The position numbers were made by a program. Source: Escherichia coli (GTDB lineage Bacteria > Pseudomonadota > Gammaproteobacteria > Enterobacterales > Enterobacteriaceae). From it: a stretch of 64,000 nt of DNA. This document shows positions 58,801 to 61,800 of this stretch, piece by piece (position 1 is the stretch's first letter; every line of letters begins with the position of its first letter). The stretch is from assembly GCF_003019035.1 (NCBI RefSeq), contig NZ_CP027447.1. The stretch is one strand, 5' to 3'.

Positions 58801-61800
58801 GCCATACTCGCAGCCTGTTCGCTGTCCATATCGCGAGCTAAAAGTGTTCCGCTTTGCTGCGCCATTTCCGCGACCTGCATTTGCGGATCTTTGCCGTCGC
58901 GCTCCATCTGCATTGCTTTCAGGTTGCGCGCTTCAGGGCTATTACTGTTAATGAGGGGCACATCTATTTCATCGCCCTGACGCACATTGTCAAAGCCCCG
59001 CGCAAAGGTACGGAACTGATTCAGGCGACGTAATTCATCAACGGTGATACCAAAGCGTGCCGCGACCGTTGGTGGCGATTCCAACGCACCCAGGGTATAT
59101 GGAATAGTTTTAACGTTCGGCAGGATCAGTGACGCGGCAGTATCCGAGTGCGCAGGATTAATATGCGTAGGGGCAGCAGCCATAACAGGGAATATAGTTT
59201 GTGTTATCAGGCAAATACCGGCGGTCAGACGACGTAAACGATCCCCCAATCCACATATGGTGTTATCGCCCCGACGATCGCCATTCCCATGCGCTTTCCC
59301 TGCCATTTGTCATCCCTGTCGCTATGCGTTCAGATTAAATGACCTTTCTTTAACATGAGGGAAAATGATGATTCATGATTAGCAAATGATGAATACAGGC
59401 GGAATAATGGAAATAACAACAAGATAAGAACAATACCTGATCAAGGGTTATCAGGGGGAAGAACAGGAGAGCTTTCCCGCCAGAGCAATAACCCTCCTGT
59501 AAATACGTTACTTCATTTTCACCTTTGCGGTGACCAATAACGCCGTCAGCAACATCAATGTGCCGGACAACATCAACGGCGAAGTCAGACCAATATTATC
59601 CAGCGCATAACCGCCGATTGCCGCGCCACAGGTATTAGCAAGCTGAATAACCGCCACCTGAATAGACCCGGCTTTTTCTGCCTGATCGGCCAGTGAGCGG
59701 GTGATCCACGTTGACCAGCCGACAGGAACCAATGCAAAAGTTAGCCCCCAGATAATCGCCACGCCGGTAGCAACGATTTTATCGCTTCCCCACAACGTCA
59801 GCACCAACGCACTCACAGCCAGTATTAACGGCGCGCCTGCTAAGGCCAGTTTTACCGAACGTTTAAGAATGAACGACGAAAGCGACGTACCAATAAAGCT
59901 GGCGATACCAAAACTCAACAGCACCAGAGTTAAGCCATCCACGCCGAATCCCGCCAGGTTCATATACACCGGGCGAATATACGTGAAGAAAGCAAACTGC
60001 CCGGCGAAAGACATGAAGATGGCGATCATCCCTGCCATCACACCCGGACGTTGTAATAAGCGGAAAGTATTTTGTTTCTGATGCGAGGGTTCGCCTGGCA
60101 GCGAAGGCAATGATTTGATAATCCAGAAAATACACAGCACGCCCATCACCGCCGCCGCATTAAAGACATTGCGCCAACCGATAAGCTCGCCTAAAAAACT
60201 GCCCAACGGTGCGGCAATCACCAGCGCAATAGAAACCGCGCCGAAGATCACCGACAGCGCCTTCGGCACCGTACGCGGCGGTACCAGACGCATGGTCAGC
60301 GACGCCGACATCGCCCAGAACCCGCCCAGCGCCAGCCCCAGACAGGCACGACCAATTAAAAGCAAACTGAATGAGTTAGCAAAGGAAACCAGCAAACAGG
60401 AGAGCGTCAGCAAAACGGCAAACAAAATAACAACGTAGCGGCGGTCAGTGGCCTGAATGGTCTGGGTAATAAACAAACTGGCAAACATTGCCACAAAGGC
60501 GGTCACGGTCACCGATTGCCCGGCAACCCCTTCCGAAATGCCTAAATCCTGGGCCATTGGCGTCAACAAACTGACGGGCAAAAACTCAACGATAATCAGA
60601 CAGGCGACGCAAAACGCCACCGAGAAAACGGCTGACCAGTTCGGTCGGGTGATGGCATCCGCGCCGCGGTTTTCGGCAATAAATTCACTCATGGTGTTAC
60701 CCGTGGCATGTTTCAGGGGAAAAGCCGACCACTTTAACATTGAAATGTGTGACGCATTTAACGTTTTTGCAACTTTTACGGTGTTGTGGGAAAAGTTCGA
60801 GGCTGCTCGAAGAAATAAAAATCATAGGGCAAGGTGATATGCATTTTCGCAATGGGGTTGGGAATAAGGGATAAAGTATTGCACTTGGTGATATACTTTA
60901 ATAACAGGATCTCAACGATATACGCGTGTTTAAAACCAAATAGTTTGCAAGGGAAGCCAGGTCTCATGCAATGACAGATGAAGAGTTGTGCCGGGCCATT
61001 TTAGAAACGGAACAAGGTAAAGCTGATGTACTTGGTGGTGGCGTTTTTAAAAAGCGCCTTCACCGAAATCGTGAGCGTGCAATTATTCTGGCAAAAGGGG
61101 GAAGCAATTGGTTTTACACGTTTTTATATGCAAAACAGGATATGTCGAACATCAATAGTCAGGAACTGGCTGGGTTTCGTGAACTTGCAAAGCATTATGC
61201 CTTCCTGACGAAAGCCCAACTAACAGCAATGATTACACTAAAGAACTGACAGAGATCTGCTATGACTGCAAAAACTAAATTTAAAAGTCCTGCATTTGAG
61301 GCTATTCACAGCGCAGCGGCTGGATTGTCCAGCGTCGATGCTATTTCTGCCGAAACAATGCGTACTTTTGACAAAGCCTGCCTGACCAGCGTGCAAGACT
61401 TACAACCTGTTGAGATAAAAGCACTGCGGGAAAAATTAAAAGTGAGTCAACCCGTCTTCGCTCACTATCTCAATACCAGCGTTTCAACTGTACAAAAATG
61501 GGAAAGTGGCGCTAAACGCCCCAATGGCATTTCATTAAAACTGCTCAGCATTGTGCAAAAACACGGGCTGGAGGTGCTGCTGTAAATAGAACGTAGATAA
61601 TGCGTTCACCTACTGTCAGTTCCAATACCGGATGCGGCGTGAACGCCTAATCCCCCCTACAGGTCAGGCGCGGTCTGTAGGCTGATAAGACGAAGCGGTT
61701 TTAATGCAGCCAGTGAACGCCCTCGGCAGGCTGAAAGAACGCGTTATAGCGCATCTGAAAAGCATTAATATCCTGCATTTCAGGTTCGGTTTCGTGCAGA

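Follow-up and report, generated by a model that had tools for sequence, protein, structure and literature searches.

A probable decaying chromosomal toxin–antitoxin operon of the HigBA2/ToxP–AntitoxP kind between nepI and yicN in Escherichia coli

Type II toxin–antitoxin modules are generally viewed as mobile accessory genes. The closest tested relative of the pair of genes described here, which lies between nepI and yicN in E. coli, is ToxP/AntitoxP of Coxiella burnetii (CBUA0028/CBUA0027, QpH1 plasmid). ToxP is toxic and inhibits translation, and AntitoxP binds both ToxP and the promoter (PMC10098735). The Coxiella operon is toxin-first with overlapping genes, as is the enterobacterial one, but it is plasmid-borne and concerned with plasmid maintenance, whereas the nepI–yicN locus is chromosomal. 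The enterobacterial toxin aligns with ToxP over its full length (32% identity, E = 1e-18), and the alignment takes in the N-terminal MRIFKTRYF and C-terminal ELIEV motifs of ToxP; the antitoxin shares 55% identity with AntitoxP over 104 of 107 residues (E = 7e-37), including the N-terminal toxin-binding part. A further difference from ToxP is that the toxin in the DNA analysed here is a pseudogene.

The HigB-2/HigA-2 pair of the Vibrio cholerae superintegron has the same gene order, and its toxin has been assigned to Pfam family PF06296 (PMC11980606), the family of the enterobacterial toxin. Active-site mutants of V. cholerae HigB2 have been described, and replacement of its long basic, disordered β2–β3 loop reduces activity 120-fold (PMC5416850). 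Growth inhibition by the toxin, relieved by its own antitoxin, has been demonstrated for ToxP/AntitoxP (PMC10098735) and for V. cholerae HigBA2 (PMC5416850). The relE–yiaG modules (Gerdes, 2025) likewise carry a PF06296 toxin 5′ of an XRE-type antitoxin whose HTH resembles that of HigA2 (PMC11980606); their toxins have extended, disordered N-termini, whereas the enterobacterial family begins directly at MRVFKTKWF. The Gp49-like toxins (PF05973; HigB1/HigB3, Tad) also belong to the RelE/ParE superfamily and also form toxin-first pairs with an HTH antitoxin (PMC11980606, Table 1). Decaying chromosomal toxin–antitoxin loci of E. coli have been reviewed (PMC7167474, citing Mine et al., 2009 and Fiedoruk et al., 2015). 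One of these, ccdO157, resembles the present locus in its fixed chromosomal position, in its presence in some lineages only and in having a mutated or deleted toxin with the antitoxin kept. It differs in belonging to another toxin family, and the nepI–yicN locus, unlike ccdO157, is common to other genera at the same site, which suggests a much older residence than that of ccdO157-like loci. The locus was not named in the literature retrieved by searches for nepI/yicN with toxin–antitoxin, nor in inventories from uropathogenic, adherent-invasive and hybrid E. coli. Experimental work on the E. coli genes was not found by these searches either, and the toxicity of even the intact E. coli allele is therefore put forward here by analogy.

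The window that we analysed is a stretch of 64,000 nt from E. coli contig NZ_CP027447.1. Pairwise alignment with the K-12-type locus delimits a segment (60787–61623, plus strand) which is absent from K-12-type genomes, where about 39 bp stand in its place. The flanks on either side, 60721–60786 (66/66) and 61624–61718 (87/95), are common to both. The segment contains the complete toxin–antitoxin module with its promoter region, and its G+C content is 42–45%, compared with 51–54% in the flanks. In our view, with a probability of roughly 0.85, this is a chromosomal type II toxin–antitoxin operon of the HigBA2/ToxP–AntitoxP kind caught in the course of decay, a reading that draws on the observed gene lesions, family membership, synteny and distribution. 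The module is of a known and already annotated kind; its toxin is broken and an orphan antitoxin is left.

Two co-oriented open reading frames are found on the plus strand, at 60971–61249 (92 aa) and 61262–61585 (107 aa), 12 bp apart, and the first contains both the LGGGVFKKRL and the FLYAKQD motifs. The initial annotation had described two small genes with this spacing; the reading frames and the spacing stand, but the first frame is not a complete gene. Alignment with the intact alleles of strain 98192, ST131, O157 and 2017-02-2CC places it within a toxin pseudogene of the PF06296/HigB-2 family, with an ancestral frame of 119 codons (60920–61278, plus strand). Apart from the toxin lesions, the window and the intact alleles are 96–100% identical at the protein level. 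The former start codon (60920–60922, plus strand) has changed from ATG to ATA. The toxin starts with ATG in ST131, 2017-02-2CC, Citrobacter, Salmonella, Klebsiella, Yersinia and Dickeya, and the ATA at 60920 is common to O157 and 98192, for which the RefSeq start is the GTG at 60926. At codon 8 (60941–60943, plus strand) a change from TGG to TAG puts a premature stop in place of Trp8, which is invariant in the family; a 55-mer with this TAG has an exact match in 137 of the 1716 module-bearing genomes. The in-frame sequence leading into the 92-residue reading frame is IRVFKTK*FAREARSHA-MTDEEL. The ATG that opens this frame (60971–60973) derives from ATA at codon 18 (Ile18Met; exact 55-mer in 160 genomes) and has only a weak AGG 5′ of it, 9 nt away. 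Lastly, a 1-bp deletion at 61235 on the plus strand, in codon 105 (ATTAACAC to ATTACAC; exact 55-mer in 83 genomes), converts the conserved toxin C-terminus NTKELTEICYDCKN into TLKN, and the last four codons and the stop of the residual reading frame are out of frame relative to the ancestral gene. Because the deletion moves the stop from 61276–61278 to 61247–61249, the 12-bp gap is, on this alignment, an artefact of the frameshift. The toxin and antitoxin genes of the intact alleles overlap by 17 nt, and the same overlap is present in all intact copies examined (E. coli, Citrobacter, Salmonella, Klebsiella, Yersinia and Dickeya). Small minus-strand reading frames at 60776–60967 and 61238–61396 found no support.

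One of these lesions is a single-base deletion, the commonest type of long-read error, and it might be supposed that they are assembly or sequencing artefacts and that the source strain in fact has an intact toxin. However, the deletion falls in an AA dinucleotide and not in a long homopolymer, two of the lesions are substitutions, and identical 55-mers occur in independently assembled complete genomes, 83, 137 and 160 of them respectively. Sequencing error can be dismissed, given that at least 83 to 160 independent complete genomes have the same lesions, and we regard the chance that the toxin is intact as negligible.

The remnant lacks the invariant residues F4, K5, T6, W8, F9, L110 and E112 and, as judged from the AlphaFold model of the intact toxin, the predicted strand 2–6, helix 7–15 and strand 110–115. 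The segment lost to the frameshift holds L110, E112 and this last predicted strand. The N-terminal MR[IV]FKT[KR][WY]F and C-terminal EL.E[IV] motifs are kept as far out as Coxiella ToxP. Both of the lesion-bearing genomes examined have the toxin listed as a pseudogene in RefSeq: SCU-301 ('frameshifted'), which is identical to the window over 60741–61700, and FDAARGOS_497, which has the same lesions. What had been read as a 92-residue toxin is thus the remnant of a 119-residue gene that has lost its start, acquired a stop at codon 8 and been frameshifted. An uninterrupted full-length PF06296 gene is not present in the window and, on the evidence of the alignment, the toxin gene is dead. The correct annotation is a toxin pseudogene with an orphan HigA2/AntitoxP-like antitoxin, not a live pair. 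We note that none of the five putative catalytic residues is missing from the residual reading frame, and that it keeps four of the six strands predicted. Given its in-frame ATG and weak AGG, some translation and residual activity are conceivable.

It is highly improbable that the 92-residue protein is itself a functional toxin which this strain gained, together with the antitoxin, through a small insertion. Its reading frame is open, starts with ATG, matches PF06296 far beyond chance (E = 4.5e-28, 98.3 bits) and still has K, R, R, Y and K at the putative catalytic positions; next to it stands an intact antitoxin gene, the module is lower in G+C than its flanks and the genes are missing from K-12. 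Yet the match spans only model positions 19–114 of 120, compared with positions 1–120 of 120 for the intact allele (E = 9.8e-42). The remainder of the gene lies upstream in frame, interrupted by TAG; the ATG is a derived substitution, and the C-terminus of this RefSeq pseudogene has been frameshifted off the conserved motif.

The truncated reading frame might instead supply a non-toxic fragment that binds the antitoxin as a co-repressor or decoy, which would make the locus a domesticated regulatory pair; we consider this quite improbable. The codon-18 ATG occurs in at least 160 genomes and is therefore commoner than the TAG (137) or the deletion (83), so that the re-start site seems older than those lesions and could permit downstream translation, although the nesting of the three allele sets is taken from the counts only. 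The new stop lies 12 nt 5′ of the antitoxin ATG, a distance compatible with termination–reinitiation. The fragment also retains the predicted helices 80–94 and 98–106, and modelling of related RelE–YiaG pairs predicts contacts between the C-terminal helices of the toxin and the antitoxin (PMC11980606). On the other hand, two strands and a helix are gone from a single-domain fold of about 115 residues, which makes a stable product unlikely, and a good Shine–Dalgarno sequence is absent. Three independent disabling changes are the usual signature of neutral decay.

The toxin-first pair of the HigB-2/HigA-2 kind that the initial annotation had proposed is supported, in that the toxin remnant and HigB-2 both belong to PF06296. 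Its Gp49 (PF05973) label is not supported: PF05973 gave no match at E ≤ 10 with either the remnant or the intact toxin, which sets both apart from the Gp49-like toxins. V. cholerae HigB-2 itself matches PF06296 with E = 3.3e-8 and PF05973 only with E = 0.21, and the GGG..KKR...YAK pattern is a property of PF06296. The toxin remnant has no match in NCBIfam, and PHROGs returned families of unknown function only. In PADLOC no defence-system model matches the toxin and the antitoxin gives only weak HTH matches; we therefore do not file the pair as a known anti-phage system.

The RelE-like fold that had been anticipated was examined for the intact allele only: its AlphaFold2 model (pLDDT 86.7, pTM 0.79) predicts the fold of the RelE/ParE superfamily (BECR), an antiparallel β-sheet against N-terminal helices. 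The top six matches of this model in a Foldseek search of the PDB are V. cholerae HigB2 chains, followed by Mtb HigB1, Cami1, YoeB, RelJK and YafQ, with values that are modest (E = 2e-3, TM 0.5–0.6). In the structural alignment HigB2 is about 20% identical to the enterobacterial toxin, which has an additional predicted C-terminal helix and strand (98–115) that are absent from HigB2 (PMC5416850). No direct sequence similarity between the two toxins was detected by phmmer, by a 26-sequence profile or by hhalign (probability 3%), and phmmer and the profile gave no relevant link from the toxin to any solved structure. As direct similarity is undetectable, it is through Pfam, the fold search and Coxiella ToxP as an intermediate that the toxin is linked to HigB2.

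A putative basic active site composed of K44, R46, R53, Y70 and K72 would correspond to K49, R51, R64, Y82 and K84 of V. cholerae HigB2, and would conserve its K, R, R, Y, K pattern (PMC5416850). The low-probability hhalign alignment pairs R46 with R51 and Y70/K72 with Y82/K84. BLASTP against ToxP aligns KKR, R53 and YAK with the ToxP residues that have been equated to the HigB2 active site (PMC10098735). Within the family, R46, R53, Y70 and K72 vary little or not at all. The β2–β3 loop is long in V. cholerae HigB2 and is kept as a long Gly/Lys-rich loop in ToxP, whereas in the enterobacterial toxins it is short, with a gap of four residues relative to HigB2 and of six relative to ToxP. The enterobacterial pair is thus a compact, short-loop member of PF06296.

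The antitoxin gene (61262–61585, plus strand; WP_000125643.1, 107 aa) is intact as judged by alignment with the intact alleles. Its earlier description as an XRE-family HTH protein holds well (PF01381, E = 1.2e-7; MqsA_antitoxin, E = 1e-5). Matches to the NadS, MqsA-family and PRK10072 models of NCBIfam were all sub-threshold, and no curated cut-off was reached. Its best sequence match among solved structures is V. cholerae HigA-2 (E = 8e-10), over residues 46–102 only. Over its first 45 residues the antitoxin has no similarity to HigA2 but is conserved with Coxiella AntitoxP. The two-part plan of HigA2, an N-terminal neutralising segment followed by a C-terminal HTH domain, is nevertheless probably shared. 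With the antitoxin unchanged and the toxin dead, what remains is an orphan antitoxin.

The workings of the intact operon, including toxicity, RNase activity, neutralisation and operator binding, can be proposed from its homologues. Most module-bearing E. coli have the intact two-gene form, as do Citrobacter, Salmonella and Klebsiella at this site. The first gene would encode a 119-residue RelE-fold toxin that cleaves mRNA under translation on the ribosome. The second, with its 17-nt overlap, would encode a 107-residue antitoxin whose N-terminal region wraps around the toxin and neutralises it, and whose C-terminal HTH domain may dimerize and repress the operon, probably through a conserved upstream palindrome. 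A candidate for this operator is the imperfect inverted repeat TAAAGTATTGCAC-ttg-GTGATATACTTTA at 60872–60900, which overlaps a −10-like TATACT (60892–60897). Its core, TATAGCAC-N3-GTGCTATA(C)T, is kept 5′ of the orthologues in C. koseri, C. freundii and Salmonella, and the rest of the spacer has diverged. A consensus scan for σ70 promoters and terminators gave no site meeting its criteria. In the window, loss of the ATG, the stop at codon 8 and the frameshift at codon 105 leave the toxin gene dead. Any product from the fortuitous codon-18 ATG would lack the conserved first strand, the first helix and the C-terminal strand, and the remaining orphan antitoxin may in effect be a small autoregulated HTH repressor.

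The module occupies the nepI–yicN site in 1716 of 5426 complete E. coli genomes (32%), and an intact pair also lies between nepI and yicN in Citrobacter koseri, C. freundii, Salmonella enterica and Klebsiella oxytoca. The initial annotation placed no gene between nepI and yicN in K-12, and the 210-bp gap in a K-12-type genome indeed contains no annotated gene. The K-12 site does, however, hold a 19-bp relic of the toxin gene, which matches codons 29–35 at 17 of 19 positions, a score that 0 of 2000 shuffles reached. Since K-12 keeps this relic, it has, on the sequence comparison, lost the module. The proposal of a small strain-specific insertion is contradicted by the 32% frequency, by the occupation of the same site in four genera and by the K-12 relic, and the last two of these also argue against a functional pair gained by this strain. 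Neither an integrase nor a transposase lies near the module, flanking direct repeats (att-like ones included) amount only to chance-level 10–16-mers, and transposon ends are absent. This again speaks against the recently gained pair, and we have rejected insertion by a mobile element. The two best matches in a plasmid collection were disregarded, as these records of 4.9 and 5.4 Mb are chromosomes. We have also set aside Salmonella STM3777–STM3778 as a lead to an orthologue, as its RelE-type listing comes from a retracted paper (PMC3868539).

Comparison of intact copies between genera gives dN values of 0.13–0.23 for the toxin and 0.05–0.11 for the antitoxin with saturated dS; dN/dS is 0.02–0.06, for the computable comparisons only. 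One could suppose that the pair has long occupied the nepI–yicN site and is held there by purifying selection, and that the antitoxin has a host function such as the regulation of neighbouring or other genes. The simplest origin would then be inheritance from an ancestor common to Escherichia, Salmonella, Citrobacter and Klebsiella, and a host function would explain why the antitoxin is unchanged while the toxin is repeatedly being lost in E. coli, with point lesions in the present lineage and deletion in K-12-type ones. We hold this proposal to be unlikely as a whole. If it were true, purifying selection at a fixed site would be unusual for a type II toxin–antitoxin module. For the decaying operon that we favour, the locus is unsuitable as a marker of recent horizontal acquisition and is of little importance beyond its correct annotation. 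It does offer a natural allelic series in E. coli (intact with ATG, intact with GTG, nonsense, nonsense with frameshift and near-complete deletion) which could be used in studying the decay of chromosomal toxin–antitoxin modules.

An Rfam search of 60600–61800 yielded nothing at the gathering score, so that neither strand gives evidence of an RNA gene or an RNA antitoxin. The REP-like palindromes noted earlier on the 3′ side of the pair are present but are not part of the module, since the K-12 site has them too. They form a 77-bp REP-type dispersed palindromic repeat (61624–61700), which was counted across E. coli genomes and occurs at a median of 31 places per genome in 5425 of 5426 of them. 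Overlapping this repeat on the minus strand (61592–61657), we note a sub-threshold match to the Rfam model naRNA4 (26.6 bits; gathering score 59.5).

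Between nepI and yicN, two ORFs on the + strand, of 92 aa (60971-61249) and 107 aa (61262-61585), are separated by 12 bp, and the motifs quoted for the first of them in the initial annotation are present. That annotation took the 92-aa ORF for a whole toxin, but alignment with other E. coli genomes identifies it as the remnant of a 119-codon gene that ran from 60920 to 61278 and overlapped the antitoxin gene by 17 nt. Relative to the intact ST131-type allele the toxin gene of the window has four changes, all given on the + strand: loss of the start codon (ATG to ATA, 60920-60922), a nonsense change at codon 8 (TGG to TAG, 60941-60943), a change at codon 18 (ATA to ATG, 60971-60973) which makes the start codon of the 92-aa ORF, and deletion of one A at 61235, which shifts the frame at codon 105 and converts NTKELTEICYDCKN to TLKN at the toxin C-terminus. 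The apparent 12-bp intergenic gap exists because this A is missing. Same-frame translation upstream of the 92-aa ORF reads IRVFKTK*FAREARSHA-MTDEEL. The antitoxin remains intact, with the sequence of WP_000125643.1. In RefSeq the toxin is a pseudogene ('frameshifted') both in SCU-301, which is identical over window positions 60741-61700 (100%), and in FDAARGOS_497, which has the same lesions. We note that ATA also stands at the toxin start of alleles that are otherwise intact (O157 and strain 98192, where the RefSeq start is a GTG two codons downstream). Toxin translation may already be weakened in lineages with this ATA and an intact frame.

Exact matches to 55-base probes, one centred on each lesion, were sought in 5426 complete E. 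coli genomes. The TAG probe matched 137 genomes, the codon-18 ATG probe 160 and the deletion probe 83, which as exact-match counts are lower bounds and were obtained separately for each probe. All of the matching genomes are among the 1715-1716 carriers of the module. The lesions are not sequencing errors and the lesion-bearing allele is a minority allele; the toxin frame is intact in most carriers, O157:H7 and ST131 among them.

An AlphaFold2 model of the intact toxin (mean pLDDT 86.7, pTM 0.79) predicts strands at residues 2-6, 36-39, 42-46, 54-60, 63-70 and 110-115 and helices at 7-15, 20-31, 80-94 and 98-106. Phe4, Lys5, Thr6, Trp8, Phe9, Leu110 and Glu112 are invariant among 26 aligned members of the family. 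According to the model, a product begun at codon 18 and carrying the codon-105 frameshift would be without both the first and the last strand as well as the first helix. The codon-18 ATG is preceded by a weak AGG 9 nt upstream and by nothing better. Because these strands and this helix are lost and the weak AGG alone precedes the ATG, the toxin in the window is regarded as non-functional; judged from sequence alone, some residual product is conceivable.

The 92-aa ORF matches the Pfam family PF06296 ('RelE toxin') with E 4.5e-28, over model positions 19-114 of 120 only, and the intact toxin covers this model end to end (E 9.8e-42). The Gp49 (PF05973) label proposed initially has to be replaced, as neither the remnant nor the intact toxin matches that Pfam model at E <= 10. 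Vibrio cholerae HigB-2, the sequence of which was checked against PDB entry 5JA9, itself falls in PF06296 (E 3.3e-8; Gp49 merely E 0.21), in agreement with Gerdes 2025 (PMC11980606), who placed HigB-2 in PF06296, apart from PF05973. The 107-aa ORF encodes an XRE-type HTH protein (Pfam HTH_3, E 1.2e-7; MqsA_antitoxin, E 1e-5). The initial view of a toxin-first module of the HigB-2/HigA-2 kind that K-12 lacks is upheld. Both genes already have RefSeq labels, the antitoxin as an HTH regulator and the toxin as a member of the RelE/ParE family (flagged as a pseudogene in the two lesion-bearing genomes examined). For the family there are a Pfam model, solved structures and two members studied by experiment, and the E. 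coli pair is of a known kind throughout, with no departure; our literature search found no publication naming or testing the pair at nepI-yicN. Decay of chromosomal toxin-antitoxin loci at fixed E. coli positions has been described (PMC7167474).

Searched directly by sequence, the solved structures gave no match to the E. coli toxin. When the model of the intact toxin was compared with the PDB, the six best matches were all V. cholerae HigB2 chains (probability 1.00, TM 0.50-0.60, about 20% identity), with other RelE-fold toxins ranking next, and the best solved sequence match of the antitoxin is V. cholerae HigA-2 (residues 46-102, E 8e-10). A closer experimentally studied relative, ToxP/AntitoxP of the Coxiella burnetii plasmid QpH1 (CBUA0028/CBUA0027), surfaced in the plasmid search. 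ToxP aligns end to end with the E. coli toxin (32% identity, E 1e-18) and AntitoxP shares 55% identity with the antitoxin over 104 residues, the N-terminal part included (E 7e-37). Experiments in Coxiella showed that ToxP is toxic and blocks translation and that AntitoxP binds both this toxin and the promoter (PMC10098735).

V. cholerae HigB2 acts as an mRNA endonuclease that depends on the ribosome; its activity requires Arg51, Arg64, Tyr82 and Lys84 and is helped by a long basic β2-β3 loop. HigA2 uses a disordered segment at its N-terminus, which folds upon binding, to neutralise the toxin, and binds DNA via a C-terminal HTH dimer (PMC5416850). By homology, the intact E. coli pair would work in the same way. 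The alignments put Lys44, Arg46, Arg53, Tyr70 and Lys72 of the E. coli toxin at the putative active-site positions, the last four being invariant or nearly so in the family. The enterobacterial family is set apart by a β2-β3 loop shorter by 4-6 residues and by an additional predicted helix and strand at the C-terminus. An imperfect palindrome that precedes the toxin gene, at 60872-60900 (core TATAGCAC-N3-GTGCTATA), is a candidate operator. It overlaps a TATACT hexamer. No sigma-70 site emerged from a consensus scan. The palindrome and the AGGA after it are kept in E. coli, Citrobacter and Salmonella, while the remaining spacer has diverged; the E. coli left arm has two mismatches compared with the perfect C. 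koseri palindrome.

The pair had been taken for a strain-specific insertion, but its distribution indicates otherwise. The module occupies the nepI-yicN site in 1716 of the 5426 genomes and lies on a plasmid in none; two plasmid-collection records that carry it, H68 (NZ_CP141089.1, 4.94 Mb) and H69 (CP125156.1, 5.37 Mb), look like chromosomes filed under plasmids and were left out when plasmid carriage was judged. In genomes without the module, K-12-type included, nepI and yicN are separated by 210 bp in which no gene is annotated. Relatives encode proteins of 119 and 107 aa with the identical 17-nt overlap and orientation. In C. koseri and C. freundii the pair is flanked by orthologues of nepI (87-88% identical) and yicN (81-87%), in Salmonella enterica it adjoins the nepI orthologue with different genes on the far side, and in Klebsiella oxytoca its neighbours are a nepI-like MFS gene on one side and a DUF1198 (YicN-family) gene on the other. 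Across these genera identity to E. coli is 79-84% for the antitoxin and 66-71% for the toxin. Comparisons between genera gave dN of 0.05-0.23, with saturation at synonymous sites; dN/dS, where computable, is low (0.02-0.06), and both genes have therefore been under purifying selection.

K-12 holds approximately 39 bp (3047-3085 of the K-12-type locus L003) in place of window 60787-61623. They include a stretch that matches toxin codons 29-35 (window 61004-61022) on the same strand at 17 of 19 bases, a score reached by 0 of 2000 shuffles, and this relic directly abuts a REP element. As a relic of toxin coding sequence it marks the K-12 spacer as a deletion scar, so that the evolutionary event runs opposite to that first proposed, as a loss in K-12. 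The simplest history is of an old resident locus, mostly deleted in K-12-type lineages and in the course of inactivation by point lesions in the lineage of the window.

The family has changed place over longer times: Yersinia enterocolitica and Dickeya fangzhongdai carry the pair at unrelated chromosomal sites, and more distant homologues (<60% identity) are on true plasmids in Klebsiella aerogenes, Pseudomonas, rhizobia, Legionella and Coxiella. At 42-45%, the G+C content of the module is below that of its flanks (51-54%), which fits an ultimately foreign yet ancient origin. We also note that toxin and antitoxin identities do not agree with the species tree (loci L004, L007, L010, L013, L014, L017, L018 and L020 from other genomes; genes at 4001-4667 or 1206-1872). 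The toxin of C. koseri shares 82% identity with its Yersinia and Dickeya counterparts and only 71% with that of E. coli. Relative-rate counts gave 17-21 unique changes in E. coli versus 3-5 in C. koseri for the toxin and 8-11 versus 1-3 for the antitoxin, a longer E. coli branch in both partners. The pattern reflects either accelerated co-evolution in Escherichia or allele exchange. STM3777-STM3778 of Salmonella, entered as a RelE-type toxin-antitoxin locus (PMC3868539, marked retracted), may be the Salmonella orthologue of the pair, which has PTS, aldolase and kinase genes beside it, as in L007.

The 77-bp REP-type repeat at 61624-61700 matches E. coli genomes at 31 places each in the median and is found at the K-12 site as well, and therefore belongs to the backbone, not to the module. 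At >=99% identity this stretch was found in one of the 5426 genomes, SCU-301, and the window probably derives from that strain or one very closely related to it. A sub-threshold Rfam match to naRNA4 at 61592-61657 on the - strand (26.6 bits, gathering score 59.5, E 0.024) overlaps the repeat and most likely reflects it, not a gene. Directly downstream of nepI, 46722-59306 (- strand) is a single 4194-aa ORF that combines an intimin/invasin-like N-terminus with some 30 tandem repeats, each about 100 aa long; in RefSeq its equivalent is named 'inverse autotransporter adhesin IatC' (a frameshifted pseudogene in SCU-301) or 'EaeX/Air'. K-12-type genomes have yicS, nlpA and yicL where this ORF stands.
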